This document shows, piece by piece, positions 14,943 through 39,100 of a stretch of 64,000 bases of DNA. Position numbers and translations under genes: made by a program. Source of the stretch: Tubiluchus corallicola (taxonomy: Eukaryota; Animalia; Priapulida); assembly GCA_030141605.1 (NCBI GenBank), contig JAQGDQ010000378.1:162652-226651 (forward strand), read 5' to 3'. The notes beneath the pieces are model-generated. The model was not told the origin of the DNA and ran no database searches. It saw only the letters and a list, made by a program, of their open reading frames with translations. Position 1 is the first letter of the stretch. The number at the start of each line of letters is the position of its first letter.

Positions 14943-15158
14943 CTACAACTTGTTCAACATTTCGTATTTCTGTTTGATGTCCATGTTTGGATTCAGTCGT
15001 GGATCCCTCCTCTTCTTCGATGTGAGCTGTGCTCGGAGCTGTTGAGCACTGAGCTGGAACACGTCACCGTCCGCCTGCGGTGCTGCAGCCGGTGGTGGTG
15101 TCGCTGCGGGTGCGGTCGCAGCTGGTGGTGGTGCTGATACTGTTGTCTGATCATTTCG
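14943..15158 (-). CDS. NHERF terminal exon: Pro/Ala linker and ERM-binding tail
   Basis: TAG acceptor at 15159; RNDQTTVSAPPPAATAPAATPPPAAAPQADGDVFQLSAQQLRAQLTSKKRRDPRLNPNMDIKQKYEMLNKL*; resembles the Sip1/EBP50 C-terminus. This frame is not in the ORF track. Confidence 0.9.
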   Translation of the reverse strand, partial: RNDQTTVSAPPPAATAPAATPPPAAAPQADGDVFQLSAQQLRAQLTSKKRRDPRLNPNMDIKQKYEMLNKL

Positions 15159-18100
15159 CTATAAAAGAAAAGAATAAAAAACTCAAACAATTAAATTGCA
15201 TTAATAAGAAGAATAAAGAAACACAATTGTCAACCTGAATTGGTGTGACAAGCATGCGTCAATGAGTGCGCAAAGGCACACATTACTCAAATGTGTTTGG
15301 GCACTGTTAACACAAACTGTTACCTAATAACTAATATCACTTTCATAGCTTGCAAATATTACAGTGTATAAAAATACACACTATATGCAAAAAATATACT
15401 ATATAGTAGTGTTGCTCCGGATACACTTTTTTTGCTGGGTAGCGAATACCGGATATCATCAAATATTTCCTCACGTTGACTTCGGTTAGCTAAATTCGGA
15501 TGGTAAATGCGGATCGGTTCGGATAATGAAAAAATAGTAAATTGTTTGCAAACTTTAGCTTTTTCATTTAGTCTGTCAAAAAAAGACTATCATCTTAAAG
15601 GACATACCCCGAAGACACACCGTGTTATCACACACAAACGAAAAAAGATGTGTGTAGAATTTTCGTCTTGAAAACACAAACATAGGCAATATTTTTAGTT
15701 ATTTTCGGCTGTTATTCGAAAACGGTTTTCAATTGCACATTACAAAAACCAGATAGCGAATATTTTCTAATGTCAAATTTTTATAACTACCGGATAATAT
15801 CGGATACGAATACTTATAGAATTTCGAGAAATATCACCATTTTCGGATACGAATCGGATATCCAGATCAACACTACTACATAGCAAGCGATGTTAGAGTG
15901 CATGACATTTTTCAAAACGTTCAACACGAACGGTAGCACAAATATAGGTGGATTAAATACCGCCTTTATTTACAGTAAAAAATACTACAAAACCACTTCA
16001 ACTTGCGCTTAGTTACCGTATAAAACATTAACAAAAGCGTTGAAAAACTATAATGAAATTAAACACAAGGTTTAGACATCGATTTGGTGCTGAACGGTGA
16101 AAAAACTGTAATATACCACCTATCACCAAAGATGTTTACTGCAAATGGCAAAAATTTGCAGATTTTCCGCTAAAAGCTTAAATTTTTAAAGAGTAGTGCA
16201 CCGACAGAAAACACAAACACTCTTGGCAACAAACGACAAGCAAGAAACATAAGTCATACGTATGAGAAAAGGCTTAAATTGCCATATTTTCACAACAAGC
16301 CTCAGTCACAATGACATACTAATGTACTAAACTGTGAAAGCTTTTTTGAGGAAGTTAACACATAAGCTGTTGCATACCAACTAAAAATATTACAATACAT
16401 AAAAAATTACATGCTAAAACTACTAAGTTACTAAACTGCGAAAGCTTTTCCGAGGAAGTTTAAATTACCGCACCAATATACAGTTATTTTACAAGCAAAA
16501 GTGAATACTGCATACCTCTACCTCTGGTTCACCGATGAGTCTAGAGCCAGGTCTTGGTACAGGTGTTTTTATGTATTGAATATTTCCTAGGTCTTTGCTA
16601 ACTTTGATGTCCCTAGAGTTGTAGTAACTGTCCGTAGCTTCGTCTACAACCAGCAGTTTGGTTTCATCTGAAATGGCCTTGATCTTCTCTACAACCTAGG
16701 TAACAAAAAAATTATGGTTGTCACTGTCCAAAACTTCACGATGCCCTAGGTTGATAGATCTTTCCCGCCCATGTGTATTGTAAATTTATGATTGGTTATG
16801 TACAGATTAAACAATTACTTGTGGTGTATTAGTATTACCTAGTAATATACTATTAACCTAGTTTCTATATGCTCATTCTTAATTACGTGCATATGAACTG
16901 CGCTTATATATAAGCAACAGATCTCAGTAACTGCCTGTGGTGTGTTATACAATACTGGTTTTACATGGATATGAACGGATACACATTTTCCGAGGAGAAT
17001 AAGAATTTTTTTTGAAATTGGGCAACTAAAACGTGGCGCCCCTCAAAACTTTGGCGCCCTAGGCTACAGCCTAGTTAACCTATTGGCTAATACGCCACTG
17101 GTAACGGGAAGGTAAATTTGATGACTGTTTCTAGGTTTCATTTTGTTACAAAATACTAACATTTAGTTTAAATATGCCATTTTGAATAAAAAAGTACCAC
17201 TACAATACATACATGTAAGTGAATAAGAGTTTATCACTCCAGGTACTAATATGAATTAGTGGTAAACGAAACAAAGCAGCATCATACAAAAACGAGAAAA
17301 AGTACAGAACGTTCTACCGTGCACCTGCGTCGGCTTAATAATAATTCTTTAAAGTTCAGAAGAGTATCATACGACATAAGAAAGCACAGGATTTTATCGG
17401 CTTACTGGCCAACTGGCATGGTACATGAATCAAGGTTGAACAAAGACCAATGCAAAAAAGTTATTATATCTCCTTGTTTAAAAACTGTTATCTGATTTAT
17501 ACTGTCAAAGGCCAGACAGACTTGGCAGTTTCGGCATTACTGTGTTCCATGGTCTTCCCTCATATGCTTGTATTATATGTGGACAGAATTCGTGTAAATT
17601 ACACAAAACATTAAGGCCACATGAAAACGGTTAGAAATCTCTGCTAAAAACAAGAATGTGGAATGGCCTACATTATGAGATTGAGCCATTACCTGTGAGT
17701 GTGTACAGTGCTCCACGTGGAATGGCCTACATTATGAGATTGAGTCATTACCTGTGAGTATGTACAGTGCTCCACGTCGAATGGCCTACGTTATGAGATT
17801 GAGTCATTACCTGTGAGTGTGTACAGTGCTCCACGTGGAATGGCCTACATTATGAGATTGAGCCATTACCTGTGAGTGTGTACAGTGCTCCACGTGGAAT
17901 GGCCTACATTATGAGATTGAGCAATTACCTGTGAGTGTGTACAATGCTCCACGTTTTCTTTATTCACTTCAATGATGCGATCACCTCTCTTGAGCCCGGC
18001 AAAATCCGCAGGACTGTCGGCATCAATGTCTCCCATGAATTCTCCACGGCCGGCCTTGTCTGCCACCAAGCTGAAGCCAAAGCCCGGGAAATCCGGCCAC

Positions 18101-21100
18101 TTGCAGACGTGGCAGTAGCGAGGCTGGGGTGCATCCGACGGGATGTTTGCTTCTCGTGGCGCTAATGTCTCCGGCGCACGATCCTAACAAGCAGCAAAGC
18201 AGTTTAATAACGGCAATGTTAGGATAAGACAAGCCAATTACCATGTCAGGCAACAATTGAAATTGAAAAAAGATAAAAAACAACATAGAACATTTTCAAT
18301 ATCAACGAATATCCATAGAAAACGCAGATTTTTCATTACCAACTTGATAACGCACAGTTAAAAATGATTTTCTCTTACTGCACTGGAAAAACTATGAAAA
18401 CCCATTAGTACCACGGCTATTTATTTTTTTCTGTTATTTGAGAAACTTATTTAGTGTGCGACATGTAATGAATTCGCACATGTGCCAGATAACAACTTGT
18501 GCATGAAAGAGAAAAAATAATTCACTATGGTACCATAGGGCTTCCGTTGGAAACTATTGTGAATTTATATTCATGAATGTTAAATAACTTAAATACACAC
18601 AAAAAATATAAAACTGAGCAACATTACAGCAAAGCAGATATGTACATAAACTAATGATTATCAATGTAATACGTAAAAAATAATTTAGAAGTTATTAAAC
18701 GTAATCCATTACCCAAACAAATTCAATTGCTGATAAAATGTGATTTAGTACATAGTAACACAAAACTAGCTAACAGATAGTTGCGGTGACCTTGAACAGT
18801 TAAATACACCCTTATTTTAACTACACCACCAATTTTACATAGTATCTAGTAAAAAAGACAGAAAATTGTTACAATTGTTTATGTTCTACAATCCAGTTAC
18901 ACCCAAAACATTATAAATGAATACATGTAATCAGAAAAGACAAATGAACATATAAAAGAGGAAAACGCCATCGATATGAAGTAAAAGAAAAATGTCGCTG
19001 AAGAAAGAAATGAAATTTTCTTTTTGCTAATTTGATGTTCGCAGCTCTTCGGAGCAAATAACATTCATTGCAGCAAGTACAGCTCAGAACAGCAAGAAAT
19101 GATAATGGCGTTTGAATGTATGGAAAATTGAAAGGCAAGCTTTCTCTAAAACGATTAGTCTGTAACAAGGCTAGCGTAAGAGATAATGGAAAACTCGCTA
19201 ACTTAAATAAGAAATGTAAACATTTTACGATTGCTAATGCTTGCAGGCATCACAATGGATACCGTTATGGACTAGCGACTTCAAGGACACAAATCCCTCG
19301 GGGCAAGAAATAATGCCAAATATCATCTTCAAATTTGTGCCAGGTATTTAGTTCAATACTGAAATCGTGGTACTGCTAAAAACATAAATGATATCATTAC
19401 AGGATTAAAAAAAACCATGGTTTTTAATTTAGCAGTATACCTGTATTTTAAAAACACTTTACAGAAAGCATAGATGTAAAAAAAGCATTAGTGAATTGAA
19501 AGGTCTTCAGAAACTGTGCGAGATTGAAACAGAGTTGTTCATATCTCAAGTACATTGCAAGAGTTCAGCCAGCCAAAAATATGTAATACGAGAACTATTA
19601 AACAGGTTTTGCTGAGATTAATATAACACACACTAGACTAGAACCTGCCATAGTTAGCATGTTAAGTTCTGAAAATTGTTAAGTTTTAAGAAAACTAATG
19701 AAAAATGTTAAGTTCTGCCAGATGAGACCTTCCAAACTTTGGCAGTCGACAGAAGTCAATTAAAGCAGAAGCGGTTAACTTGTACAAGCCATAAGAGAGA
19801 GAGACATTTAAGAATCGCTGGGTGATATATAAGTTAGGTGATGGCCATAGCTACCTCAATTAGCTGTTCTTCATTATACTCATTGGCCGGTACGATAGCG
19901 GAAGCCGGTCGCAACAGCGGCGTCTCAAACACCTGTATGCCATGCAGTCTCGAAGTCAATGGAATCCTCTGACTTTTGTATGTCAGGTAAGTGTCTTCAT
20001 CGGCAACAAGGAAAGTAACTGAGGTCGGACTTTGCTTTATGTACGTCTCGATTTCTTCGCAACTCCGTTTCTCGACATTAACCCCATTGACTTCAATGAT
20101 AAAGTCGCCCTGGGCCAGACCACCGGCTTCCGCTGGACTGTAGGCGTCCACTCTACCTATCATATCGATGCTTTGTGCCCTGTTGTACACCAGACAGAAT
20201 CCGTACCCTTCAAAATCTGGCCACTTGTGGATCTTGCAAAGTCTAGGCACGTTAACAGCCTCTTCTGCAGGCAGTATGTTAGTAACAGGAACCTTGCAAA
20301 AGCATATTGAAGATAAGAAGCAAATACTTACTGAGTTTTATTAATGCATGCATTCCCAAGCAAAGTAACATGCCACATCCCTATGCAGCAGCCGGCAAGA
20401 TATACCTTTCCCTGTATGACTATAACATTGGCCTATACAGGTCAGTTTGTAAGAAATTAATCCCTATATTCCCACGAATCTTGGCAGAGGTAATAATACA
20501 AACAAGTATACATACAGACATACTTGTTAGCCCAAGTGCATATTTACAGACCATAAATACTGGAAGGAAGTGTAGCGTCATATAATATTATAATTTAGCA
20601 GTTCATTACACCTATGATATTCACACGGGATTGTTTGTCATGTTCACAAACAAGCAAAAGGTCACTTCTGAATCATGCGGCCACACACCATCCCATTTTA
20701 TTCCTGTGATTCTCTTTGGAAGGCAATTTATACATAGCTCAAAGTGGAATATGACCCAAAATATCATGTAGTAAATGACATACGAAGTAGTGCGCTCATT
20801 GCTTTATTGTATTTATATGCATTTTATATATGATTACAAAACAATGTAGTAATTATTTATACACCTCGTATCTTACAAAATAGTACAGCAAGATTTGTAT
20901 AATAAGGTAAATATGCATTTTATATATGAATATGCTATGAAGAAATTATTTACACATCTTGTATCTTACAATATAGTACAGCATTATTTGTACAATAAGG
21001 TACTTTACAGCTACTATAAATATTATAGTGCATAACAATTATATACAATATATTTGGTAGCTTTCAACCGTTCAATTTCTATGTGTAACAACTGTGCGAT

Positions 21101-24100
21101 ATCCTTTCTATACTAAGATATTATACATAATATATATGGCTACGTTGAAAAAGTGTTTAACTAATATACTGTATTAAAACTGCTAGCGTGCGGCGGTAAA
21201 ATGGACTTCTAAATTCAAAGATTTCTGAATGCTTATCAAATGTATCACAGTCCAGGAGCAATACAGAACACATGAAATCTACAATAGCAAACTTTACAAC
21301 AACGTAGCAACATTCCAAAATTCACTATCTGCTTCTCAAAAACAGAACTAGAAAACAGTGACTGGGAGTGGGATACCATGTAGTTCCATGTGATCCACAT
21401 TCTTTGATTGATTCTACATCAACTTTTAGCCATGTACGAAAAATGTGCGAGAAAATGTCAACCAAATATACAACCTTTAATCATGTAAGTCCACCAGGTC
21501 AGTTCTTTTGAATTTGTCTTATTAGCAACAAATGTCGATAAAAGCACGAAGACAAAAGACAAATGTAGACAAAAGGCTCTCCAAGACCAGTAAAAATGTG
21601 GTGCTGTAAATCATCGACCGGAAAAAACAGCAAACATGGCTGCAAATGCAGCAGCTAGCGACAGTTCAATCTCTCAAATAGCAGCCTTTTCAACAAGTTA
21701 ATCAAAACTGAAAGTTATATCCCACAATGAGGCAATACTCTAGGAGCCGAGAAATATAGAAAGTTTAGCATTGTTCACGGTATTATTTGCAATGTATGAC
21801 ATTGGTTCTACATACCCAACGAAAATGTAAACTAACTTAATGACATAATCATGACATCATGACTCAAGTCATCATCATCTGATCATCTTACAACCCCAAG
21901 AAAACATTGAAAAAAAGAGTGTGAATTAAATCTCGAGAGTACGATGATCTTAATGCATCCCATAACTGTTACACTTTCATACGAATCAACACAAAAATTA
22001 ATCAACGGATATTAAATGGGAAGATATGAAAATAATACAGAAACATTCAAGAATGTACGAACGAACATTATGTTTGACGACATGTGACGCCAAGACATTA
22101 AAAAACGCCTTGTGTAATTAAACGCCTGCAAAACACCATAAAAATGTAATTAAATAACAGCAAAACACCAGCTAAACATCTCAATCTCAGTATTTACCAA
22201 CACCAACAACAGTTACAACACCCGTCACCGATGCTAGTCACAACACAATGTAATGAACATAGCCAATGCCCATTTCTATAGACGGCACATATACTAGAAC
22301 TGTCAGTAATCTAGGCAATATCTATGACTGGATCTATGAAGCTGAAACAGCCAATATAAACCTTGAACAGAACGAGGCCCCTACCACATAACATACCGGT
22401 GCCTCCAATAATTCCACATTTCTCAACTGAGAGGTTACTTTGATGTTACGCGAAGAATAATATTCGTCTGCTTCGGCGTCAACCACCAGGAAAACCACCT
22501 CGCTTGCATTAGCTTTAATTGCTTTAACGATGTCGAGATGCGATTTCCCGTCAATGTTGTCGTCATTAACCTCCACAATGCGATCACCAACTCGCAGGCC
22601 TCCGGCGTAAGCGGGACTTTCACTTTCGACCTTTTCAATATATTCAGCTTGCTTGGTTTTATCGTACTTAAGATTAAATCCATAGCCTTCATAGTTGTGC
22701 CACATGCAGATGGTACACTTGCGTGGTTTTGGTGCACCTTCAGCAATTTCACTTATTACCGACACTACCTATATTATTGAAAGCCTTATGTCAGAAACAA
22801 TGAAAAATATAGGAGGAATAATTAAAATAAACTGAAAAGAAAACTCATATATAATAAATAAAAATTTAATAAATATAAATAAAAATAAAATAGAAAGCAT
22901 GCATAAAGAAAAAATTCTCAATTTTTCACTAGAAGCAACTTAACATTGAGCAGCACTGCATCTAGAAATTGTTATAAGCTGCTATAAGCATAACTCAGCA
23001 TTTATTTGTAACACGAGAGCGAAAAACAGGATTGTTCTGCAAGCTTACTCTACTAACACACACAGCTAGCAGCGCAGGAGGATTGCAATACCTTACGCTC
23101 CGGTTCAGCAGTACCGGGTCTCGGAACAACCGTTTCCAAGTTCTCCACATTCTTTTGTTTAGAGGTGACAACAATGCCAGCAGCCGAGTAGTATGATTCT
23201 GCCTTCTCATCGACTACTAGCAAGGCAACCATTGCGTCATCAGTCCTGATCAGCTTGATCACTTCCAGATGAGATAGACCGCTAATGTTCGTACCATTGA
23301 CTTCTACAATTCGATCCTCGTCTAGAAGACCTGCGCTGTGAGCCGGACCATCCTCCTGGATTTGGGTAACTGTCTCCTGGTCTCCGGATTCGTCGTACTC
23401 TAACGTGAAGCCATATCCATCATAATCTGCCCACTTGTGAATGGTGCATAAACGAGGCTTTGGCGCATCCTCGGCAATTTCTTTTACTGCCTCTATTATC
23501 TGTCTCCGAAGAACAAATAATGCTAAAGTTGTGTTAGTAAAAAGCAAAGCATAAAATAAACAAAAGGATAAACAAACAAATAAATAAAGCAAAGGAAAAG
23601 AAAAACTTGCTTTCTATCAACAGCTTTGCAAACATGCATAACAAAAACTGATTTTTTTATTAAAGTGAACCAAAATTGTTAGTAGGCATGGATTATGCTT
23701 GCAAAAAACAGATTACTAAAGATACATGCTGCCCCCTGCATTACCTAGTCGCTTTGGAACTCCGCTTTAAACAGCTTTTAAAAATTTGCAACATTTAAGA
23801 TGAAAACTGCAAATACCTGCTCCGCTACCCTGGCAGGTCTAGACTCTGGTGTTTCAATTCGTTTAATATTTGGCAAGTTGGTGGTAACTGTTATGCCTCT
23901 GGATGCATAGAACTCATCAGCTTCTGGGTCAACTACAAGGAAAGTAGCACGACCAGCGACCGTCTTGATAACATCGATGACCTCCTTATGACCTTTATCT
24001 TCAATATTTTGTCCATTCACTTCAACCACGCGGTCATTTGTCCGCAGTCCACCCGTCTCTGCCGGACTGTCTGCTTCAATGTCACCGATAAACTCCTGCT

Positions 24101-27100
24101 CTTTGACTCTGTCATACTTCAAATTGAATCCGTAACCCTCGTAATCCGGCCACTTATGAATCGTGCATAATCGGATTTCTGGAGCATCATTCAAAACCTC
24201 TTCTACCCTTTCTGCTACCTGACCAACAAAATAATGTTGAGAAAATAAACACGATTATTTGTTAGTATGCAGCTCATACTAGAAGCTTAATGTCGACATC
24301 AGATTAAAAGATTATTTGACATGATAAATGTCAATTAGTCATTGCGCTTGTCAAGAAACAGAGAATAGTTAATCACTACTAATCTTTTTACATTTGTACA
24401 TCTGAAAATAACTTTGAAAAAGAAGTGAATCATTGAAAAGAAAATTCATAACCATGCGAACGGCGAATGTGATTTTTTTTGTGGTTGTACTCTACAAGAC
24501 ATTAGTTACGAAAAGCTAGCGACACAGTGTCTACAAACGATGCAGCTCGGCAGCTACAATGCCTCCTACCTTTTCTTTTATAAGAGGCGTTTCCAGTTTC
24601 TCAATATTGTCCATACTAGAAGTTATTGCTACACCACGAGAGGTATAATATGCAACTGTTTTCAGGTCAGCAACCAAGAACACGACATGGTCAGTGTTAG
24701 ATTTAATGATGCCAACTATATCACTATGCGATTTGTCTTCTACGTTTTGCCAATTGACCTCAATCACACGGTCACCACTTTGCAGGCCACCAGATTCGGC
24801 TGGACTGCCCGATTCTACACTTCTGATAAGTTCGAATTTCTTATCCTTGTCGTACTGAAGGTTAAAACCGTAACCTTCATAGTTTGGAAGTTTGCGAATT
24901 GTACACAGACGAGCAGATGGTGCAGGACCCTTAAATGTACAAACGACAAAGAAATGCACAGTGTTAAAAGCACCGAAAGTTAACCCATCATAAATAATCT
25001 AATGCCATTGAAATGCAGTTATCAACAAATTTACTCACACAATCACCTAAAAATACAATCGTCTGTAAAGTAATAAGTTTAGCTGCTTCATTTAATTAAG
25101 CTTCATCCTAAAAAAGGTCTTCCAATAAACTAAAATAAACCGGTAACTAAAATATTCTGTATGTACAAGCAAACCGAAAACACCATTAACCTATAAAGAA
25201 CTAATAATTAACATAGCTCACTATCGCAAATGTTATGCATGGTCGTTCTTGAAACGAAAATCAGATATCAGCAAAAATGTTGATAAGAGAGTTAACTGCA
25301 AACGATTTAATTACTAACACAAATAGCTTTACAGATGCCTGCAACACACATAGCTAAACAACATCACTGCTTAGAAGACGAGCACCACATTCAACCTCAC
25401 TTGACAATTTTTGCCAGATCTTCTGCACCATTTATAACAAATGTCACAAACCAATTTGTTATTTATAAAAGACTATTACTTAACTCTTTCATAAGAAACA
25501 TTAAGAAACAGTAGCTAAGATATAAAAAGCAAATAATAATATAGGTAATTTAGGCATTACTCGAGAAAGGTATCTTTGAGATTTAAGCCAAAAAATGGTG
25601 ATTCTCAAAAATTGGGGCTGGAAAGACAAACATCGACCATGTATATAAGATATGTGGCTGGCAAAAAGCTAACTGATCAAAACAAATCTCAAACAGACAT
25701 TTTGCAACAGTGCACTTGCAAAGCCCCATATTGAAATACTTATCAAGTAACTGAACGAGACAAAACTGTCGGTAAAGCACGAAGTACATCTCAGCTTTAC
25801 TACAGGCAGACAGCATTTGTAACAAATGTCACAGCTAATGATTCGATCTCTAAGGAAGAGACAAGGAGACAGCAGAAAATATCGACTACAGGCTTTAACT
25901 ACTAGCACACAACTGAAGAACACAAAAACCAAGAGATTTACAATGTCATACGAGAACATGAGCAACACAAGAGATCATGTGCCAACGGTTATTTCTAATC
26001 GTAACTACCAGACAGACAAACATAAAACATAAGACAGTACGATAAGCACTGTTAAAAGTGGTGCCATACGCAAGACGAATACATCAACGTACCTCGGCCT
26101 CCCTAACTGGCGTCTCCAGTTTTTCGATATTTTCCATACCAGATTTTATCGTGATACGACGAGCCTTATAATGAGCAATAGTCTTTGCGTCGGCAACCAG
26201 GAACACGACATAGTCGCTGTGAGACCTGATAAGGGCGACAATTTCCGTATGGGATTCTTCCTCGACATTGCGACCATTGACTTCTATGACTCGATCGTCC
26301 GACCGAAGGCCACCGGCCTCTGCTGGACTTCGTGGTTCAACGTTACGAATACTTTCGAATTTTTTGTTCTTGTCGTAAAACAGATTAAAGCCGTAGCCCT
26401 CGTAGTCAGGCCACTTGCGTATAGTACATTGTCGAACGGAGTGAGTAGGTGCCTTTAATATTGAAAACAAGGCTACTTCAATAAGGAGTGGGAAGAAAAT
26501 ATAAACACATTAAAGTATTATAATAGCCTCCTCATAATGTCTCATTTTAGCCGACAGAAGAAATGACAATTTTTTAATTTACTACTTTAATTTGTTTAAA
26601 TTCACCAGTAGATATCGTTTACACCAAATTTAAAAAAAATGTTAATATGTCGAGATATTTTTACATACATTTCTTTATGTCTACAAAACCAATTGAAAAA
26701 GTTAGAAATATATGTTTAATAACAAACGGTACAATGCAACAACATGAATTCTGAGCTATAACACGACAAGCTAACTAAGCCAGTTCTAGACAAAATATTC
26801 TTTAATTGTAACCTCATTTTGGTCATATTTGTATTAGTTATGTTTGTATTAGTTATTTGTTTTAGCTGTTTGTTTTAGTTAATTAAAATTCAGGAGCTAC
26901 TTCGCCTCATTTTGGTGCTGATGATCTATAATAATAAATTAAATCTATTCTCCTGAATCTCACAAAATGGGCAAAAGAAAACATGAAACTTTATCAGATC
27001 GTCATCGGAAAAATGGAAGGCATCAAATACTACGGTGACAATTATATATGCATAACATACAGCATAAAATCTCGATACAATATGGTCAAAAGAAGCTTTG

Positions 27101-30100
27101 TACATTTTTCAACGCATTTTTAAGTCCCTGATTTTTCCACCATATTATCATTTGAATACGAAGTATTACAAACTCGATAGTAATAATCAAATAATGGAGA
27201 CTTAAGGAACACAAAATTTAGACAAGACAAACAACCAACAAAACAACCAACACCATCACAAACGAAACCAGTAGCAAATCAGCACACAGCTGTAAGACTC
27301 CCTTATATGACCAACATCGACTACACTAGGCTTAACGAGTCCGACCAATTCTACAACGTATGAAACACGTAGGTCTGCAAACCTTCACCGACATTGCAAG
27401 TGACAAGCACTCCTTGCCAGGAGACAATAAGGACACTTTGTCTCTGCACCGCACAGCTGCAACAGGAGCACATATCCATACCTGCTCTGGAATCTGTGCT
27501 ACAACTGGTGTCTCCAGCTTTTCAACATTGTCCATGCTTGATGTTATTGCAACACCACGAGAAGCGTAGTAGGCAACCGTTTTCAAATCAGCGACCAAGA
27601 ATATGACCTCATTGTCGTTTGACTTAATGATGTTAACAATGTCACCATGCGACTTGTCTTCAACATTTTGCCAGTTGACTTCAATCACACGGTCTCCGGA
27701 TTGTAAGCCACCGGATTCGGCTGGACTGCCCGACTCCACATTACGTATAAGTTCGTACAGCTTATCCTTGTCATAATGAAGGTTGAAACCATAACCCTCA
27801 TAGTCTGGAACTTTACGAATCGTACACAGACGAGCAGATGGAGCAGGACCCTTAATACGGAAATGTTAAAAGTTTAAAACCAATATTACTTTACTCAATT
27901 TACAAAATTCAATGCAGAAACGAAACCAATGAAATTATAAGGAAAAGTGGAGAAAAAGCAAAATACGAAAAAGTCGTGTACAGTCGTTAATGTTCATACA
28001 CACTGCCTAATTGCTACATATTGCAGAATGAAGGCATACCTCCTGTTCCACAAGAGGTGTTTCCAGCTTCTCAATATTCTCCATACTAGAAGTTATCGCT
28101 ACACCTCGAGAGGCATAGTAAGCAACTGTTTTCAGATCAGCAACCAAGAATACAACATGATCGCTGTTAGACTTAATGATGCCAACAATATCGTTGTGCG
28201 ATTTGTCTTCAACATTTTGCCAATTGACTTCAATCACACGATCACCAGTTTGTAGACCACCGGATTCGGCCGGACTGCCCGATTCTACATTACGTATAAG
28301 CTCGTATTTCTTATCCTTGTCATACTGAAGGTTGAAACCGTAACCTTCATAGTTTGGAACTTTACGAATCGTACACAGACGAGCAGATGGAGCAGGACCC
28401 TTAATGTGCAATGTAACAATATTAAAATAAAATTCATCTAGATGAGGTAAACAATTTTTTATATAATCTAAACGGAAAACACAGAAAGTCAAAAGCGATC
28501 CAAAGCATTAGTAAGTTATGTTCATACTAAATAAAGATACGATGAGACGCAAAGAAGAAAGAGGAGCATACCTCCTGTTCCACAAGAGGTGTCTCCAGCT
28601 TCTCAATATTCTCCATACTAGAAGTTATCGCTACACCTCGAGAGGCATAGTAAGCAACTGTTTTCAGATCAGCAACCAAGAACACAACATGATCGCTGTT
28701 AGACTTAATGATGCCAACAATATCGTTGTGCGATTTGTCTTCAACGTTTTGCCAATTGACTTCAATCACACGATCACCAGTTTGTAGACCACCGGATTCG
28801 GCTGGACTGCCCGATTCTACATTACGTATAAGCTCGTATTTCTTATCCTTGTCATATTGAAGGTTGAAACCGTAACCTTCATAGTTTGGAACTTTACGAA
28901 TCGTACACAGACGAGCAGATGGAGCAGGACCCTTAATGTGCAATGTAACAATATTAAAATTGAAATTCATCTAGATGAGACAAAAAATTTTTTTATATAA
29001 TCTAAACGGAAAACACAGAAAAGTCAAAAGCAATCCAAAGCATTAGTAAGTTATGTTCATACTAAATAAAGATACGATGAGATGCAAAGAAGGAAAGGCA
29101 TACCTCCTGTTCCACAAGAGGTGTCTCCAGCTTCTCAATATTCTCCATACTAGAAGTTATTGCTACACCTCGAGAGGCATAGTAAGCAACTGTTTTCAGA
29201 TCAGCAACCAAGAACACAACATGATTGCTGTTAGACTTAATGATGCCAACAATATCGTTGTGCGATTTGTCTTCAACGTTTTGCCAATTGACTTCAATCA
29301 CACGATCACCAGTTTGTAGACCACCGGATTCGGCTGGACTGCCCGATTCTACATTACGTATAAGCTCGTATTTCTTATCCTTGTCATACTGAAGGTTGAA
29401 ACCGTAACCTTCATAGTTTGGAACTTTACGAATCGTACACAGACGAGCAGATGGAGCAGGACCCTTGAAAATTCAATATTGCGAAGCAACACAAATAGAA
29501 CAAAAGTAGTATACATGTGTATGCAGAATACAGAAATAGAAGGTATTAACCTGGTACAGCATATATGTGTACATAAATGATTACCATATAAATAGAACTG
29601 GCATTTATAATATACCTCAGTTCATTGCCACTCAGTGAAGACCTATGTGATCTATAATTAAAATTGCTCAGTTTAGTAAAAAGTGCTGTACATACAGCAT
29701 GCAAAGACAAGAACAACAGCTAACATCGCTGCAAAAAAGCAACATAGCAAACACCAACTGCACACATGTAAAGAGCTGCTACACTTTTGATACACGTTGA
29801 ATGCACAATTACATAGACAAAATGGCACCTAGCACCACATACTTCTATGGGTTTTGTTGTCGGTGTTTCTAAACGGATGACATCTTTCATCTGTGAGTTA
29901 ACAGAAATGGATTTTGACTTATAATATCTGGATGCCTTATCGTCGACGACTAAAAATAGTACCCGGCTGGGATGCTTGTTAATGGCTTCGATGACACTGT
30001 CGTGAGACCATCCGCTGATATTTTTGCCATTGATTTCCACAACAACGTCATCTACTTGCAGTCCCCCAGCATCAGCCGGCCCACCGGCTGCCACAGTATG

Positions 30101-33100
30101 CACATATTCCTGCTTCTCCAACTTGTTAAATCGCAGAGCAAAACCGTAGCCCTTATAATCTGGCCATCTATGTATAACGCACTCCCGGGGTGGCTTCACT
30201 CCTGTATATACCTTCAAAGTCGTGAAACGAGAGCTTGTTTAGTTTACTTATAAGAACTACTCAATACAATATTAAACCAGTGGAAACTGTGAATGTATAA
30301 GCTTTTTTGTTCTTACCTGATTCAGAATGTAGTTAATGAAATGGACTGTACAGCTAACACCAACCTAAGCTTCTAGTAAATGCAAAATTATCCATTATAA
30401 TGGTCATCTAGTTAGCGAAAACCGGTTGCGAAGATAGAAAAATTTCAAAATTTGGCTAGGGAGTTTGGACACAACTGATGCTAATTTTGCAGTTTTCTGA
30501 ATGTGTAAATTTTACATTAACCTAAAAAAATGAAAAAGTTGCAAGAGCACTAATGAAACCAGAAGTTTTTGTCCAATTTCAATCTTAACAGAAATTGACC
30601 AAGTACATTAAGAGACGTGTTCACCTAGCGATGAATGTTTAAAGGCAAATGTAACCAATGGGGTTAATAAAATACCTGAACTTTTCCGGGTTGATTCTCT
30701 GGTGTTTCTAGTCTTCTAACGTTTGGTAACTCACTACTGACATTAATCTTCCGGGCACTGTAATAAGATACAGCTTCTTTACCAAGCACCAGAAGTGTCA
30801 CATGGTCTTCAATAGACTTCACAAGTTCTATTACATCTGCATGCTCGGCTCCCACAATGTTCTTTCCATTCACCTCAACGACTTGATCATTTTCCAACAG
30901 ACCGGCTAGGTCGGCTGGACTGTCAGGTGTCACCTTGTTGACCATTTCAAATTTTTTATCCTTTATGTACCGCAGTGTGAAGCCATAACCACTAAAGTCT
31001 GGCCATTTACGAACCAAACATTCTCGAATCCATGGTGCACTGGTCGGAATAACCTTTAATTTTTATTTGTAACAATTATTTTAAAACAAATGGCAATTTT
31101 AGCAGTAAACGTAGAGGTAACAGTACATGTACACACCAACCACTTAACAGATGCAAATGTACTACTAATAAAAACATTAAAAACGTCTAGCTCTAGCATA
31201 TGCAAACATTGGCCATTAACACTGCCATACTTATGAACTGCTTTCAAAATTGACAGCTAAAATGAGAAAAATTTTGAGACCGCAACACGTTCATATATAG
31301 ATGAACTTCAAGACCCGTGACAGACAACAGAGTGTAACTGTAATTCAAGTAGCTGCCTGACAAATACCATATTTATGTACACAATAAAAGCAAGCATTAA
31401 ACTCATGCAAGGCAAATGATTTGATGAACACTGGATGCAAAGGACTGTGCAGCAACTGCAACAGCAACCTGGTTGCTAATAGACAAAAAGCTAGTGTTCC
31501 AACAGGACAGAAAGTAGTGTAGCAGCTATCAGAAAGTCACAAACATGTAACAAAACGTAATACTCATCATACGGTATCTGGTTGCTCTTCTGGAGTCTCT
31601 AGTCTTGTCACCTTCAATCGCGCCGTAATCGGCATGTTACGAGACTGAAAGAATTTAAATGCTTCCGAATCGACAACAAGGAATGTCACCCGATTAGGGT
31701 TACTTTTAATATTGTCGACGACTTCCTCGTGTGACAGCCCCTCAACATTGGTTTCGTTAACTTCGACGACACGATCGCCAGCAAGAAGACCGCCCGCATC
31801 AGCAGGACCATCAGCTTCCACGTTCCCAATATATTCCTGATTTTGGTCTTTCTTGTATTGCAGCGTGAATCCGTACCCACTGTACTTTGGCCACTTTCGT
31901 ATGGTGCAGTGTCGTATAGGTGGCGTGTCCTCTTCGCTGGCTTCCGGCTCTTTTTCAATCTCATTGACTACTGCCTTTAATGTGAATTAACTGTTTGTAA
32001 TACATTTATAACAGGCAAGCAGCAACGCGGTGCAGCTATCTTATTTTCTGAGCTGACTAAAATAAGCCAAATTTAAACAGCCCAAATTAAGTAATAACAC
32101 AGCTATAACCATTTGGCTAATACATCTGTAATTATGATCCCCAAGTAGATGTAACAAAAATGGCAATGCGTTTGAACCTAGACAGGATAGGATCACTACT
32201 CATGACTGAAGATTTGACACTGTTCAGTAAGCTATTGTTTTAACAAAGAAATGCAAGTAAAAAAATGTAGCCAGTGATAATTCCAGCCACTGAGATTCAT
32301 AGTAGGAAACACCATCAAATTTAATGACGTCTTTTAGCAAGGGATATCCAAAATATGAATGGTTTATTTCCCTTTGATTATAAAAATAACAAATAGTGAA
32401 CCAAGTTCAATTTAAGTTGTAATTCTCATAACAACCTGTCTAAAGGTGTTCAACGAATGTGCTGTTTACAATTAGCTTTATTCATTGGCTATGAATGGCG
32501 ATTAATGTTAATAATATACCTACCACATCTTTCCGAATTTAACCTTATTGCTACAACTATATTCACTTTAGCCATTCATAGTGTCAAATATAGCAGTTCG
32601 TTTGCTACTTTTGGCAAGTAGCACCTATCTATGTGGTGCTAATGCCCATAAAGCACCTATCTATGTGGTGCTAATGCCCATAAAGCAATTCTGAGTGGCT
32701 TGTGAAATGAAGAGACTATAAGCTAGGAATTGAACATAACATGATAAGCATTCTGTTGTAATTGAAAACATAAAAAATTGTATTTATACATACCTGCAGA
32801 AACATCACTTCCTACATGTTATTAAAAAAAACTTAGTGTAACAAAATAATGTAACCAAGACGTCCAACAATTTGTAATCTCTCCCTCCCCCCTCCCGTAA
32901 TGTAGAGCTAATAAGAAAAGCAAGAACAACTGCCAAACTTGAGTGAGTTTGTAGTTTCAATTTGGCTAGAAGGAAATATACCTGCAGAATAAAATGTCAG
33001 GCAAATAATATTGTGAAACAATTCATTCACACAGTTCGAAAATGGCAACTGCACACATGTAGCATCATCGGGCTGTTAAGGAAGTGTGTAAATTACTAAA

Positions 33101-36100
33101 TAGTATTTATTACAGAACTGCTTTAAGTTAGTTTGATCTGTGTAAGCTAGCTAATTTGGCAAACTTTGCTGATTTTTTCTGCCATTAAATGACAGAAGCA
33201 GTTAGAAAATTCAGGCATGAAGCTAAAGTGACTCAAGATTGGAAAATTTGATAATCCTAAACTGAGATTTAAATTATAAAAAATACAGGCAACAAAAGTA
33301 TGAAAAAACATATCCTCACCTGGACAACAATTCCGTCTGCATCACCATTTTCACGCGGGCGTGGCACGGGCGTGGCAATATACTCGATGTTGTCAAGTGC
33401 GCTAGAGATGGGAATGCCACGAGCCCTGTACTGCTCGTAAACGTCACTGCTGACAACCAACATTTTAGTTTCACTTGGATTCGATTTAATCTTGTTGACC
33501 ACATCCATGTGAGGAAGACCCTCCACGTTGTCACCATTGACCTCGATGACTCGGTCGCCCTTCCGCAACCCACCCATGTCAGCCGGACTGTCGTGGTCAA
33601 CATCACCGATGAACTCCTGACTACTACTCTTATCATACTGGAGATTGAAACCATATCCCTCGAAATCCAGCCATTTCCTTATGTGACAGAGTCTTGGGGC
33701 TGGCAGCGTGGAAACGGCAAGATCCGCAATGGCAGCTGTTACCGCCTCCACCTAAATAAATAAGAGACAAGCCACCCTAAATACCTAAATTTCTGTGTAC
33801 AATTAGTTTCTAGAATATCCACAAGATTTTTACCACCCCTTCAAATGTGTTGCATTTGTCCCATATAAGCTCACCCCAATTTCCAAGTAAGAAGCTGATT
33901 TTCTGTATTTAATGTTCAAGGTTAGTCCCTAAACTTCACTTGAAGAATGAAATGTCTCATGACAATGTTAACAGCAACATAATAAGCTTGTTGGTGAAAT
34001 TACTGCAAACATTGGCAGATCACAATTGTACGTGCTGTAAATACGACAATTCAACTAATAAGACACCAAAGCCGAAACTGTGCAAAAGAATAATTACGTA
34101 AGTATTTGAACGGAAATTTCAGAAACATTAGCTAAGCAAACTAACACATAAACTATAGGAATTGAACAAGATTGTCCCAGAGTTGTAGCAAAATGGTAAG
34201 TGGTATAGTGAAGACATCTAAGAGAAGAGCAGCGAGGTCATGAAGAATGTCACTTCAAAGTGGCACAGAAACACAACGTTGACAATGTACCCTTACTTTC
34301 GTAGGTTCACTTTCCTCGCTCTGCAGCGATTCGGGAGCTGAGGGCGCATCACCACCCTCAACGTGGACTTCACCAGTTTCAGCAGAAAAGGACCCATTTA
34401 CCTGGCCGGGCCGTGGTCGGGGTACGGGCGTCTTGATATACTTGATCACCCTCATCGAGCCGTCAATGGGTATCCCGCGTGAATGGTAGAAACTATCTGT
34501 ATCTCTGTCGACGACGAGCAGCTTGGTCTCATGAGGAATTGCTCGAATCTTGTCTACAACCTGTTGAACAAAGAGACAATGTTTAGTGCAGCAAACAACC
34601 ATGAACATCCACACAAAGACTTATTACGACTGAGAGGGAGCGTTATAACAGCTGCACTCCATTGCTGCAATTGGTTGAGCAAAAATCTTTGCACAAAAGC
34701 ATCTCAGTAAAAAACTCTAAACATTTAGCAAACAGCAAATTTCAAACTAAATGTGCCGTAAGCAAAGATCTACTTCAAATGAAAATAAAGATAAAAACTA
34801 AAGATTAAAAAAAAAGATATACTAAAGATGGCAACTACTGTCGCAGATTTCAGCCGCTGAGGCACAGGGGTATGACTGACAGAAATATTTGGTTAATTGC
34901 TATCTTTAGTATACTAGTAGCATAGTAACTCCTTTCTTTTTCTATTTCAATTCCAATTTATTTAATGCATGAACAAACGAAGCTCTTCATAAGCACCTTA
35001 ATAAAGTACAGTCACATCTCTTTACACCACAGCTTTGGACATTAAGTGAGTCTGACATTACAAAGAGGTGCATTAATACATACATGTCTATGCAAATATA
35101 GGCCAAAAATGTGGGCGTTAAGCAAGGTCGGCATTAGAAAGGCGGGGCAATATAACTGTACATAGCATTCAGTTAGTTTGATAAATTTACTGTTTCATAG
35201 TTTCATCAGGAACTATGACTAAGCATTTGCATGTAAACAAGACATAAGAGAAATCAAAAAGTCATTCTTACAAATGGTGTGTAGAAATGAGAGCATCTTA
35301 GGTTAACATTTTAAAAAGCTTACACAAGGCTGTACTTTGTAGACTACAGTCAATCAGTACGCAACCAGTAAAGTACCAAAACACATAAATGACTGACATT
35401 TTCAAGTTTTGCCGCATCAGATAGCAAGGGTGTACATCAAGTAGCTATCACACCAACACAAATGTCAAATCAAATATAAATATTTACAAGGTAAACAATA
35501 AACTGCTTCTTGTTTACAAAGTGAAATTTTATTTGTCTGCAGGCAAATTTGATTTCATTATGGCACTTCACAATCCATCATTTTCCGCTATTTACGTTTC
35601 AGTTTTCCGCTTCCACTATTCTTCCTGTTAGGTGAAGTAATTACGTCGCCATCGAGTTCACAGCTGGAATAACAGGGATTAAGGAGACGATTAGGGATTT
35701 AATGTAATTAGTAATCTGTTTAAACAACTGACAGTCATATGTGGCCGAGCAGGAAACAGACCACCACACTGGCAGCCCTCTCAACTGTGTCTGCACACAT
35801 ATTCTAGGAGGACAACCAGGAACTTGTTACGCATGTTGTGTGCAATGGGGCAAATGCAGGCAATAGATCCACATTACAAATGCAGACCAACATTAAAGGA
35901 CATTCAGTTCTAGCATTCACTGAAATTTTTTTTATCGTATCCTTGCATTAATTAAATTCATCCTTCATCATTCTTTGAGCACTGGGACACTTTAAACTTT
36001 TAACTCTGCCACAACATTTGACGTAAAATTCAAGGTAATATGATGAATGTCTGCCACAATATTTGATATAAAATTCAAGGTAATATGACGAATGTATCAC

Positions 36101-39100
36101 TTGCGTATTTTGTTTGATAACTCAGTATTGGCCAACAAATGCATTTTGACAGATAAACGTAACGCATGAACACCCTTTTGCTAAACAGATTACTCATGAG
36201 TTTATTCATCGGCTGTTTGAAGTATCTTGCGTACTAGACAGTAGGTTCTATGATTAAGACCTGTTTTACACTTGTCTCACATAAGCCTCAGTGTTGCATT
36301 CAACAACAAGGATCTACATCAGATAAGCACTTAAATGTAGGGAATTATAGAGAGCTTCAACAACTGCGTAATGTGTAAGATAAAGACCCAGTAAAAAATA
36401 GAATGAAAGACTGCAACGTTTTAGATGTTTCCGAAGATTTTCTCAACATATGAGTTTTTTGTATGATGTCGGACATCAGGCAGGGGTAAGGCGAGCCTTA
36501 GAAAGCTACTTAATAATCCTAACTGTATTATTAAAATTTTGACACTAATAACTGTTTACCTTTTGTATAAAGAAGCAGATTGCTACACACTTCAGGCATT
36601 ATAACTTAGTGCTACATTTGCAAATTAATATAATTCAGAATCCATGCAGCTTAAATTCATCAAACATAAGCTGTTGACGTTCATAAATAATAATAATTTA
36701 TCGCATGTGTAAAACGCATTAACATTAAAATAGACAAATACATTTTACATACACGAATCATACCATAACATACATACATAAACACATAAACAGAACATAA
36801 ATACTAGATTATTTTAAACTTCAAACTTACTTCACCCAGCAAACTACAAATTACAAATAGAAATTTACAACATAGCTGAAGAAAAACAACACAAAAAATT
36901 AATATATTTACACTACAAATAGTAAAGCTGTGTGGCTCAGGAGACCTAAAAATGGCAAAACAGCCGCATAAATAAAAGGTGATTAATTAAAATAAATTAA
37001 AAGATTTAACAAAGCTAAAATCGTATACATGTATATAAAATCGCTAGAAATCAGCCCCCAAAACCAGTACTTTCAGTCCCTAATAAATTTTTAATTAATT
37101 AAAAAGGCAATTAAAGTTCTAAGAAATGATTTGTAGTTGTCAACATTGGTCATTCTATGTGCATAAAATGGTAAATTGTTCCATAATTTTGGTGCTGCTA
37201 CACAAAAAAAAACTATGAAATCCATACATGACTAGATTACAACACGGGTCGGTACAACAAGAGTCAATGAGCTAATTGATCCAAGATTATTACCTGAGCA
37301 TGAGGTAAATTCTCTACACACTCTCCATTTACTTCCACTATCCGGTCTCCATTTACCAGACCGGCCATGTCAGCTGGACTGTCCGACTCCACAGATCCGA
37401 TAAACTCCGCCTGCTTCTCCTTTTCGTATTGCAGGTTGAAGCCGTAGCCATCGAAGTCGGCCCACTTGACGAGGTGGCATAGTCGCACAATGGGGGCATC
37501 GTCCGGGAGCTCCTATAATTCCAATATGCAGTAATGTTTTATGCAAAGAAACAAATGTAACAACCTTGGCAAATACGTACTGTATGCCATTACCGCATAG
37601 CTCGAGATTAGTTTATTTTTCTCTCATTATGAGTGCAAGGTAATCAGTACTAAACAAGACTGTTTGCAAGGTTAGTGCCCCTAGGAAAGTTACACAGTTA
37701 CTGGCCCAGACTTAAGAATGCTGGAAAACTACTGACATAGTCCGTTCACTGCTGCATTAAATGCATTATGTGGAAACTTCCATTTAACTTCTATTGCCAG
37801 ATATTTCCATTTTTAAAATCAATCAAAAACAGAAAATCACACTTTTTAATGTAGATAAATTGAAAAAAATTGGAAATTTGTAGGAAAATAAAAAGGAAAG
37901 AGTTTACAATTCCCCACACAATTTAAATACCCTAGTCCTAATTCTAACCCTAACGCAAAGTCTAACTATAATTTCGTTTCACGAACTAATTTCCTGTGTG
38001 TGTGGACAATTGTAAACTTTAGCCAAAAATTTTACAAAATAACAACTACAAGAACTTTAGGTCTTTCATATTATTAATACTTTCACATCAGCTTAGAAGT
38101 GAGTGCCAGAGAAAAATTTTTAAATTTATAACAACATAAAAAAGCTATGGATAATATATCAATCAAAAACTACACTGCCTAAACCATTATAAATGCTGTA
38201 AAAGCCATAGCAGGTAAAAAAGATACCATCAATCTTACTATATCGCTAATCTTGGCCATACAGTTAACAATGAAAAATAAAAGTTTTTCAATATCAGGGT
38301 CTAAGATTAGTGAACTGTCCTTCTTTTGCTCTAGTGGTTCATAAAACGCTTCGTGGGCAGAAAAACAAACTTGAAAAAAGACTACTTGAGCCGAGTATAT
38401 CAGTGAAGTTACAAACATTTCAGGAATTTGTAATGATAAAGCTAGCAACCATTGTATGCACAAGGACATACTTCAGAGCCATAAACCTACCTAGATGTTC
38501 TGACTTTTTTTATAACGGTTGTTTGCACAGCTACAGTAGCACGATGCCTTATCAGCTTTTATCCTGGACTGTGGGACAAAATAAATAATCAATTTTTGTG
38601 CAATCAGACATACTGACAGTAGGTCAACTGCATTAATGTTGGCATAATAATCATTGTGGGGCACATGTGTAATGAACTACACTAGGCACAGGTGTGCTTG
38701 CAGTTATTAGCCAGATTTTTGAGTTATCATAGCTCACTTAATGTATGATATAATGAAAAAAGTGAATTAATAAGAAATTTGTTTGCAGTCCATATTATTT
38801 TCCATATTTTCGTTATCTTTATGTAGTGGTCTCAGTTACTGTACCCGACAGTATAACCCAACGCCCAAATATAATCATGCAAAGCAGCTTCGTTGCTGCT
38901 CTTTGTTTTTTTGCTTGTTAAACAAGGCCTAAATTCAGATTACATTTTCTATATACAGCTTTAATTTAAATTTGGTAATTATTTTTTGCACATAAGTCTT
39001 AAATTTGCTATTATTAAAACTAACATACAAAGCAGAGTTTAAAAAAATTTGGACCGAGCAATCACGTAACATAGAATCATTAGAAACGAGCAAAACTGCA

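Follow-up and report, generated by a model that had tools for sequence, protein, structure and literature searches.

The question raised by this locus, in a 64,000-nucleotide stretch of Tubiluchus corallicola DNA (hereafter, the window), is whether a tandem array of single-domain PDZ exons generates different splice forms, and whether such forms would differ in the number of binding pockets or in their specificity.

Architecture and family of the PDZ gene

Judged by its sequence, the gene encodes a scaffold of the NHERF/EBP50 family with 17 predicted PDZ domains. PDZ3-16 occupy 14 minus-strand exons of 360-438 nt, all with lengths that are multiples of 3, all bounded by AG/GT and open in phase 0 (predicted phase 0-0), and all passing the Pfam PDZ cut-off with nearly the whole profile covered. 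The sequence-only reading had described such an array of 14 symmetrical one-domain exons at 19855..33751, and every exon was recovered, as were the motifs it quoted after GYGF (9/9) and at helix B (9/9). The common phase was inherited from one duplicated exon, and thus the 14 of 14 do not represent 14 independent events.

The exons are listed below with their basis. X2 is a run from a relative (presumed RNA) with exon pieces about 90-94% alike to the window, P0004 is a transcript-derived protein of a relative with 84-99% protein identity to window exons, and X1 behaves as DNA (its contigs cross introns and have no splice joints).

42479..42871, minus: PDZ1, whole, coding exon with ATG (backbone); Pfam PDZ; a loose end of X2 at 37513 fits the exon's 3' end
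37294..37512, minus: PDZ2 first half, 2a (backbone); X2 joint 34558/37292, CT..AC, short side 219 letters
34297..34560, minus: PDZ2 second half and acidic linker, 2b (backbone); X2 joint, donor predicted
33320..33751, minus: PDZ3, single exon, 432 nt; donor used by X2 joint 18182/33319
31573..31974, minus: PDZ4 cassette, 402 nt; donor confirmed by P0004; X2 piece 31640-31835; X1 contig 31275-32032
30676..31053, minus: PDZ5 cassette, 378 nt; ends predicted; Pfam PDZ; not in P0004; its bin without X2 cover
29843..30211, minus: PDZ6 cassette, 369 nt; ends predicted; Pfam PDZ; X2 cover in its bin; not in P0004
29104..29463, minus: PDZ7 cassette, 360 nt; young copy; X2 piece 29120-29419 and joint at 29462
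28572..28931, minus: PDZ8 cassette, 360 nt; young copy; dS 0.024 against PDZ7
28040..28399, minus: PDZ9 cassette, 360 nt; young copy; same protein as PDZ8
27482..27850, minus: PDZ10 cassette, 369 nt; ends predicted; Pfam PDZ
26093..26452, minus: PDZ11 cassette, 360 nt; start and end confirmed by P0004 (92.5% identity); donor in an X2 joint
24570..24929, minus: PDZ12 cassette, 360 nt; both ends confirmed by P0004 (91.7%)
23817..24218, minus: PDZ13 cassette, 402 nt; start confirmed by P0004 (87.7%); X2 piece 23934-24229
23092..23499, minus: PDZ14 cassette, 408 nt; both ends confirmed by P0004 (87.5%)
22397..22768, minus: PDZ15 cassette, 372 nt; both ends confirmed by P0004 (83.9%), there joined straight to PDZ17a
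19855..20292, minus: PDZ16, divergent copy, 438 nt; ends predicted; not in P0004
17929..18183, minus: PDZ17 first half, 17a (backbone), common acceptor 3' of the array; X2 joints; P0004 98.8%
16522..16695, minus: PDZ17 second half, 17b (backbone); X2 joints 16693/17927 and 15158/16522
14943..15158, minus: last coding exon, with Pro/Ala linker, invertebrate NHERF-type tail (predicted ERM-binding) and stop; X2 joint

Exon boundaries were picked among several AG/GT candidates. Through P0004, exons 11, 12, 14 and 15 are confirmed at both ends, exon 13 at its start and exon 4 at its end, and X2 confirms the end of exon 3 plus a 7-like start; the ends of exons 5, 6, 8, 9, 10 and 16 are predictions. 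The X2 piece and joint placed on PDZ7 may instead stem from its paralogue, exon 12. PDZ3 is present in the skip-all form (see below) and is therefore read as backbone, and the optional array is better read as 13 exons (PDZ4-16), or as 12 should exon 16 not be used. At exon 16, X2 contigs read through into intron at either predicted splice site, and use of this exon as a cassette is unsupported.

Searched with hmmsearch against solved structures, the domains matched best the PDZ domains of NHERF1/2 and PDZK1 (E to 4e-29), and they are of the NHERF type with a C-terminal helical extension. The class-I pocket (GYGF and the Leu after it; in helix B, the His and hydrophobic residues at positions 5 and 8) is kept in 13/14 array copies and in 16/17 domains of the gene. 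The exception is PDZ16, which has Cys for the helix-B His and Glu at helix-B position 5; its predicted model has the full extended PDZ fold (pLDDT 89), with the extended NHERF1 PDZ2 as the best Foldseek match (rmsd 1.4). According to the excerpted text of PMC3788737, these pocket positions set class-I binding in NHERF1, in which His27 and His29 contact ligand positions -1 and -3; the array copies vary at the positions matching these two residues. By eye, the C-terminal tail resembles those of mollusc, mite and priapulid NHERF proteins. It had no match to Pfam EBP50_C at E 0.01, and a fish NHERF2 tail was weakly alike (5/13 identities, E 0.042). By analogy with NRFL-1 and EBP50 as described in excerpts of PMC8860247, the tail would bind ERM proteins, the pockets would bind the tails of membrane proteins, and the protein may be apically localised. 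More than four strong NHERF-type domains were found in 7 of the 196 proteins compared, that is, five Priapulus isoforms, P0004 and P0005.

Probable exon skipping in transcripts of relatives

The splicing evidence comes entirely from the relatives X2 and P0004, and none from the window's own genome. In X2, the joint 18182/33319 links the PDZ3 donor to the PDZ17a acceptor and skips 13 exons; it is canonical (CT..AC) and falls exactly on both predicted exon ends. The short side of this contig has 30 letters, one below the 31-letter bridging rule, and is unique linker sequence that contains no PDZ repeat. The remaining three X2 splice joints (2a/2b, 17a/17b and 17b/last) are likewise CT..AC and at predicted ends. 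X2 contigs also lie on exons 4, 7-like, 11, 13 and 16, indicating that the array is present in the lineage of X2. The lack of X2 cover on exons 5, 9, 10, 14 and 15 was not counted as evidence, and contig depth, which is unable to rank isoforms, was not used for ranking.

P0004 matches exons 4, 11-15, 17a, 17b and the last exon at 84-99%, in the order PDZ4-11-12-13-14-15-17, and lacks exons 5-10 and 16. Its junctions, placed by blastp, are exact in six of eight cases and within 1-5 residues in the other two. P0004 includes six array exons, of which one is partial; five (11-15) are neighbours joined in series. P0004 derives from an assembled contig, so chimerism among its repeats is possible, and exons 5-10 could be lost in its genome. 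Exons 5 and 6 are old copies (34-48% identical to other array copies) and should predate the split from the P0004 lineage, thus their absence from P0004 is most simply explained by skipping.

The in-frame skipping anticipated by the sequence-only reading is therefore supported, in relatives only, by the PDZ3-to-PDZ17 joint of X2 and by the omission of exons 5-10 and 16 in P0004. Exclusively consecutive junctions, which that reading had equated with a constitutive repeat protein, occur in neither record. The relatives' transcripts yielded just 3 to 4 junction patterns, full-inclusion RNA was not found among the transcript records examined (X2 and P0004), and a search with a single exon returned no longer homologues at E 1e-10.

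Two further X2 contigs are less direct. A PDZ3-to-PDZ13 joint is only inferred, from the piece at 23934-24229, whose contig carries a 29-letter overhang identical to that of the PDZ3-to-17a contig; when 11 of the 29 letters were compared with 19 exon ends, the PDZ3 end was the best (9/11). A joint that goes back from the PDZ11 donor to a PDZ7-like acceptor was not counted as exon scrambling. In P0004, the exon that follows 11 resembles exon 12 (91.7%) more than exon 7 (86.7%); the joint is therefore more probably a normal 11-to-12 junction that was assigned to a paralogue, and less probably a back-spliced circle.

Copy age, selection and splicing signals

The youngest part of the array is the triplet PDZ7-9, made of 532-nt exon-plus-intron copies with dS of 0.02-0.06. 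PDZ8 and PDZ9 differ by 5 synonymous and 0 non-synonymous changes and encode identical proteins, and PDZ7, 10 and 12 are 86-99% identical to 8/9 and to one another over the core, so there are fewer than 14 distinct pockets. Among copies 7-12, whole-exon dN/dS was 0-0.16 in 11 of 15 pairs (those with computable dS), older copies being saturated. The recent copies are under purifying, not diversifying, selection, and at this whole-exon level no diversifying selection on the binding face, of the kind reported for ROCO genes, was found among copies 7-12. The sequence-only reading had suggested that splicing could tune both valency and specificity. With the class-I pocket kept in 13/14 copies and dN/dS so low, tuning of valency is favoured, while the specificity half of that suggestion is weakened. 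In the tree, the array domains formed lineage-specific sub-clades; forcing all 18 inner domains (window and P0004) into one clade gave p-AU 0.53, a value that does not reject such a clade and does not demonstrate it either.

Docking/selector pairing did not rise above shuffled sequences in a crude scan for ungapped duplexes, in which introns 3 and 16 were compared with the 12 internal introns less intron 8, a near-copy of 7 (11 introns; 60 shuffles each). The best observed score was reached by 5/60 shuffles for intron 3 and 20/60 for intron 16, and a loop-out scan of intron 3 against intron 16 gave a score reached by 14/60. Of 198 inverted repeats, the longest 25 contained no recurring intron pair. 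AAG acceptors occur in 10/13 array exons vs 0/6 backbone exons and in at least 2/7 exons of the neighbouring gene; they look weak as acceptors, but the copies are not independent, and as evidence they are insufficient for a mechanism. The frequency of YGCY (34 in 1800 nt vs 9 in 900, p 0.055, in a comparison chosen after looking) is likewise too weak a basis for one.

Interpretation and relation to known systems

We consider it probable that one internal PDZ exon was copied in tandem to give the 13-exon array, that relatives skip this array whole or include runs of it, and that splicing sets the number of pockets. A front end of three PDZ domains and a last PDZ domain with the predicted ERM-binding tail would be fixed, with pocket number varying in between. 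Skip-all RNA would encode a 650-aa protein with 4 PDZ domains, and full inclusion one of 2296 aa with 17. From what is known of the family, the pockets may take class-I C-terminal tails (-S/T-x-L), such as those on transporters and receptors, and longer forms may gain avidity and reach by clustering or spacing a larger number of copies of similar membrane partners; tuning at ligand positions -1 and -3 would be secondary only. The 532-nt triplet suggests that the array may gain and lose units by unequal crossover of exon-plus-intron units, which would leave the reading frame intact, all units being phase 0-0. A bolder version, in which priapulids have a regulated splicing dial by which every cell type selects a particular run of at most 13 PDZ domains (4 to ~17 pockets) with tuned partner preference, rebuilt by separate duplications in two lineages, is tentative and in our view doubtful.

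The main alternative is a mostly constitutive repeat protein whose skips are minor, unregulated by-products of weak, frame-safe exons. There is precedent in the excerpted text of PMC3484663: teleost piccolo b, also a scaffold gene, has 8-16 tandem copies of one phase-0 zinc-finger exon, with single gains and losses and independent expansion in several lineages, and the 15 tandem phase-0 exons of zebrafish pclob are nearly all joined serially. The serial run of exons 11-15 in P0004 fits this reading, as does the outcome of the intron and motif scans, from which no regulatory element emerged. We nevertheless regard it as unlikely, as two separate records have large block skips (13 exons in X2; 6 and 1 in P0004), neither has full inclusion, and the skip-all joint came through contig assembly as its own contig. 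Somewhat less likely still is that the apparent skipping is due to genomic copy number, through deletion alleles or arrays specific to a lineage, or to chimeric assembly of repeats. The array is turning over, as seen in the young triplet and the sub-clades, the relatives X2 and P0004 are diverged and disagree with one another at some residues, and the key joint has a short side of just 30 letters; but its CT..AC borders lie at both predicted exon ends, that short side is unique linker, and array-exon contigs occur in the same X2 run.

Mutual exclusion of the Dscam type would place one array exon in each mRNA through competing docking/selector pairing, for ligand diversity. In Drosophila Dscam1, exactly one exon per cluster is chosen in this way (PMC6071210, in excerpt), and the two loci share tandem homologous alternative exons, here of similar lengths and with variation at the positions of the ligand-contacting NHERF1 His27/His29; the inferred PDZ3-to-PDZ13 joint would also resemble one-of-many entry. 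The records, however, contain none or at least six array exons and not exactly one: P0004 strings 11-15 in series, and X2 both joins two array exons and skips all. Together with pairing scores within the range of shuffles and purifying selection, this makes mutual exclusion very improbable, and the Dscam-like comparison made in the sequence-only reading did not hold.

We therefore return to a variable number of pockets as the favoured explanation. The locus is a tandem symmetric one-domain cassette array, in that its exons are same-phase duplicates and transcripts of relatives differ in repeat content. Tandem symmetric exons, cassette skipping and NHERF PDZ domains are all known parts, and it is not a diversity generator of the Dscam kind. 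In the excerpts available, piccolo b exons straddle domain halves and are almost wholly serial, whereas the present gene is a further example of amplified exons that each hold a complete domain, with skipping of large blocks. Brown-algal ROCO genes have one LRR per same-phase exon and splice variants with different combinations (PMC11378527, in excerpt), but there 72-nt motifs build one joint binding surface under diversifying selection, unlike the intracellular scaffold described here, whose domains are autonomous, 120-146 aa long and under purifying selection.

Within the NHERF family, NHERF1/EBP50 and NHERF2 have 2 PDZ domains and an ERM-binding tail, PDZK1 and IKEPP have 4, C. elegans NRFL-1 has 2 and Drosophila Sip1 has 1 (excerpts of PMC3419730, PMC8860247 and PMC4603932). 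The window gene shares the PDZ type, including the extended PDZ, and the class-I pocket, and its tail resembles by eye those of invertebrate NHERF proteins, but it has 17 PDZ domains, 13 of them on skippable one-domain exons, vs 1-4 in described NHERF proteins, in which the number is fixed by the gene. Splice forms with 4 to potentially 17 pockets would represent a natural series relating scaffold valency and length to the clustering and retention of membrane transporters. The gene was not described in the literature searched (most subscription journals lay outside its scope).

LOC106807044 of Priapulus caudatus, an 'uncharacterized protein' with 11 PDZ domains and RefSeq predicted isoforms X1-X5, is likely orthologous on the basis of sequence. 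Its first and last PDZ domains pair with those of the window at starred support (100/89 for PDZ1), the tail is similar, and it also has an internal repeat array. In contrast, 6/7 internal copies group in a starred clade of their own, without one-to-one matches among the window copies, and on this tree-based evidence the Priapulus expansion is its own. Of the RefSeq-predicted isoforms, X5 has a deletion that is ambiguous between near-identical repeats, and X4 lacks exactly one whole repeat.

An expanded NHERF-family gene

Scanning the window in six frames gave 17 PDZ starts with the G[YF]GF motif, every one of them on the minus strand (18,084-42,802), and 20 coding exons were predicted for the NHERF gene, with exon ends chosen at AG/GT sites that preserve the reading frame. 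Coding exon 1 carries PDZ1; PDZ2 and PDZ17 take two exons apiece with an identical split point, and PDZ3-16 are encoded by a single exon each. These predicted models bore out the sequence-only reading of 14 one-domain exons (360-438 nt, lengths multiples of three, phase 0 at both ends); all 14 passed the Pfam PDZ cut-off, and every motif quoted in that reading was found in them. The predicted product has 2296 aa if every exon is included and 650 aa from the backbone alone (PDZ1, 2, 3, 17 and the tail), the remaining 13 exons, PDZ4-PDZ16, being hereafter the array. Contigs of X1, a DNA-type run, span several array exons plus introns with few differences from the window, so the array is not confined to this assembly, though X1 may come from the source sample itself.

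A profile built from 15 exons had NHERF1/2 and PDZK1 domains as first matches among solved structures. The most divergent copy, PDZ16, is predicted to fold as a complete PDZ domain, NHERF helical extension included (pLDDT 89), closest to the extended NHERF1 PDZ2. The top named homologue was Priapulus caudatus LOC106807044 (11 PDZ), whose first and last PDZ pair with those of the window with starred tree support, which makes a priapulid or something close to one the probable origin of the window. The tail is similar to invertebrate NHERF tails, matches the fish NHERF2 tail weakly and gave no match to Pfam EBP50_C; the corresponding tail of C. elegans NRFL-1 is described as binding ERM-1 and taking NRFL-1 to the apical membrane (PMC8860247).

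Family members described in one account have one to four PDZ domains (PMC3419730), and a single NHERF form is said to exist in invertebrates (PMC4603932). More than four strong NHERF-type domains were present in 7 of 196 fetched proteins. P0005 (1059 aa) is a distinct NHERF of invertebrate type; its PDZ domains, seven or more in number, group apart from the priapulid array, so NHERF PDZ number expanded more than once. No description of an NHERF from a priapulid, or of a comparable array, was found in the accessible text of the open-access literature. The array is a real, undescribed set of optional whole-domain cassettes in an NHERF scaffold, a variant of an already known kind, with skipping supported in relatives and with splicing that may be regulated.

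Copies 7-9 are a young triplet of 532-nt exon-plus-intron units. In a tree of 64 domains, window copies 7-12 and six Priapulus copies each formed a starred clade of their own, no one-to-one window/Priapulus pairs appeared among inner domains, and a single clade of all inner window domains was neither rejected nor shown (p-AU 0.53). The triplet and the lineage-specific clades fit recurrent gain and loss of single exons, the pattern reported for teleost piccolo b, whose 15 phase-0 exons are, unlike this array, joined nearly all in series (PMC3484663). Two features that might make the exons skippable were too weak to serve as a mechanism: AAG acceptors occur at 10 of 13 array exons and 0 of 6 in the backbone, but also at 2 or more of 7 in the neighbouring gene, and a YGCY excess behind array donors was marginal and post hoc.

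Probable skipping of array exons in relatives

Run X2 carries the same species label as the window and is about 90-94% alike in exon pieces; it is a relative, not this DNA. Its behaviour is that of RNA: of five distinct joints, four lie at CT..AC on predicted exon ends, and one loose end agrees with exon 1. A loose end at window 33676 resembles an Illumina RNA-ligation adapter, which would fit an RNA library. One of the four joints at predicted ends connects the donor of PDZ3 with the acceptor of PDZ17a, skipping 15,136 bases and all 13 exons PDZ4-PDZ16; its short side is 30 letters, one below the bridging rule, and these are unique linker. X2 contigs also lie on exons 4, 7-like, 11, 13 and 16, so the array is present in the X2 lineage. 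The fifth joint connects the donor of PDZ11 with an acceptor resembling that of PDZ7. It is most probably a junction of exons 11 and 12 aligned to a paralogue, possibly a circle; under either reading, two array exons are joined. A matching overhang suggests a PDZ3-to-PDZ13 joint in X2.

Skipping is also supported by P0004, a relative's protein of 890 aa from an assembled contig. Aligned to the window's exons one at a time, it matches 4 (last 39 residues), 11, 12, 13, 14, 15, 17a, 17b and the tail, with identities of 84-99%; six of eight junctions are exact, and exons 5-10 and 16 are lacking. Because exons 5 and 6 originated far earlier than the window/P0004 divergence, skipping is a simpler explanation for this record than loss, which may nonetheless have occurred. 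P0004 and X2 have some substitutions in common and differ at others, and are thus separate records. Among predicted Priapulus isoforms, X4 is missing exactly one repeat and X5 has a deletion of ambiguous placement.

Exon 16, counted among the cassettes on sequence grounds, is unsupported as one: over the PDZ16 region (19834-20356, minus strand) X2 contigs cross both predicted splice sites into the intron on either side, and it is spliced in none of the records. A read-through transcript would stop the protein six residues on, without the tail, and PDZ16 is a candidate retained-intron, terminal or decaying exon.

Exclusivity, valency and specificity

In the cited account, a Dscam cluster is defined by the inclusion of exactly one exon in each mRNA and by docking/selector pairings that compete (PMC6071210). 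The Dscam-like exclusivity raised by the sequence-only reading is contradicted by zero array inserts in one relative's record and six in another. The docking/selector search it had suggested, run within the gene's introns (ungapped helices; 11 of 12 internal introns), found none above shuffles: the best candidates were equalled by 5/60 shuffles in intron 3 and 20/60 in intron 16, and loop-out pairing between these array-flanking introns by 14/60.

In NHERF1 PDZ1, Tyr24, Phe26, Leu28, Val76, Ile79 and His72 are reported to set ligand positions 0 and -2, and His27, His29, Glu43 and Arg80 to tune -1 and -3 (PMC3788737). Residues matching the first set are retained in 13 of 14 copies, and the variation after GYGF falls at sites matching the second. 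Core identity is 86-100% among copies 7-10 and 12 (n=5), and among copies 7-12 dS was computable for 11 of 15 pairs, which have dN/dS of 0-0.16, unlike the brown-algal ROCO LRR exons, described as diversifying (PMC11378527). Together these features predict that the copies bind similar class-I tails, and array inclusion would mainly alter pocket number and spacing. Splicing had been proposed to tune both valency and specificity; the former is favoured over the latter, and the older copies 4, 5, 6, 11, 13, 14 and 15 may still add fine tuning.

Repeats, candidate sites and neighbouring genes

Further features of the window are as follows.

17658-17954, minus strand: 59-nt tandem repeat that takes in the final bases of exon 17a, whose donor is therefore present five times (17929, 17870, 17811, 17752, 17693); copies after the first would give a frame shift or stop, and X2 uses the first.
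26813-27462, PDZ10-PDZ11 intron: X1 contig depth of 38.8 versus about 4-19 in other listed gene pieces, which hints weakly at additional copies in that animal or at a repeat, depth being no copy number.
32794-32811 and 32982, minus strand, PDZ3-PDZ4 intron: two AG-GT sites with no transcript support seen; one may form a microexon of 18 nt that keeps the frame (predicted EVMFLQ), the other has a strong acceptor with donor-like sequence immediately after.
38897-39846, intron 1: long imperfect inverted repeat with ~280-nt arms, likely a non-autonomous DNA transposon.
2518-9774, plus strand: seven predicted exons joining as an open frame that ends in a zf-Vps39_C domain (Pfam), presumably the 3' portion of a gene like TGFBRAP1/Vps39.
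49649-56029, minus strand: open frames resembling exons of a further gene, one of them weakly matching the IQ motif (E 0.056).
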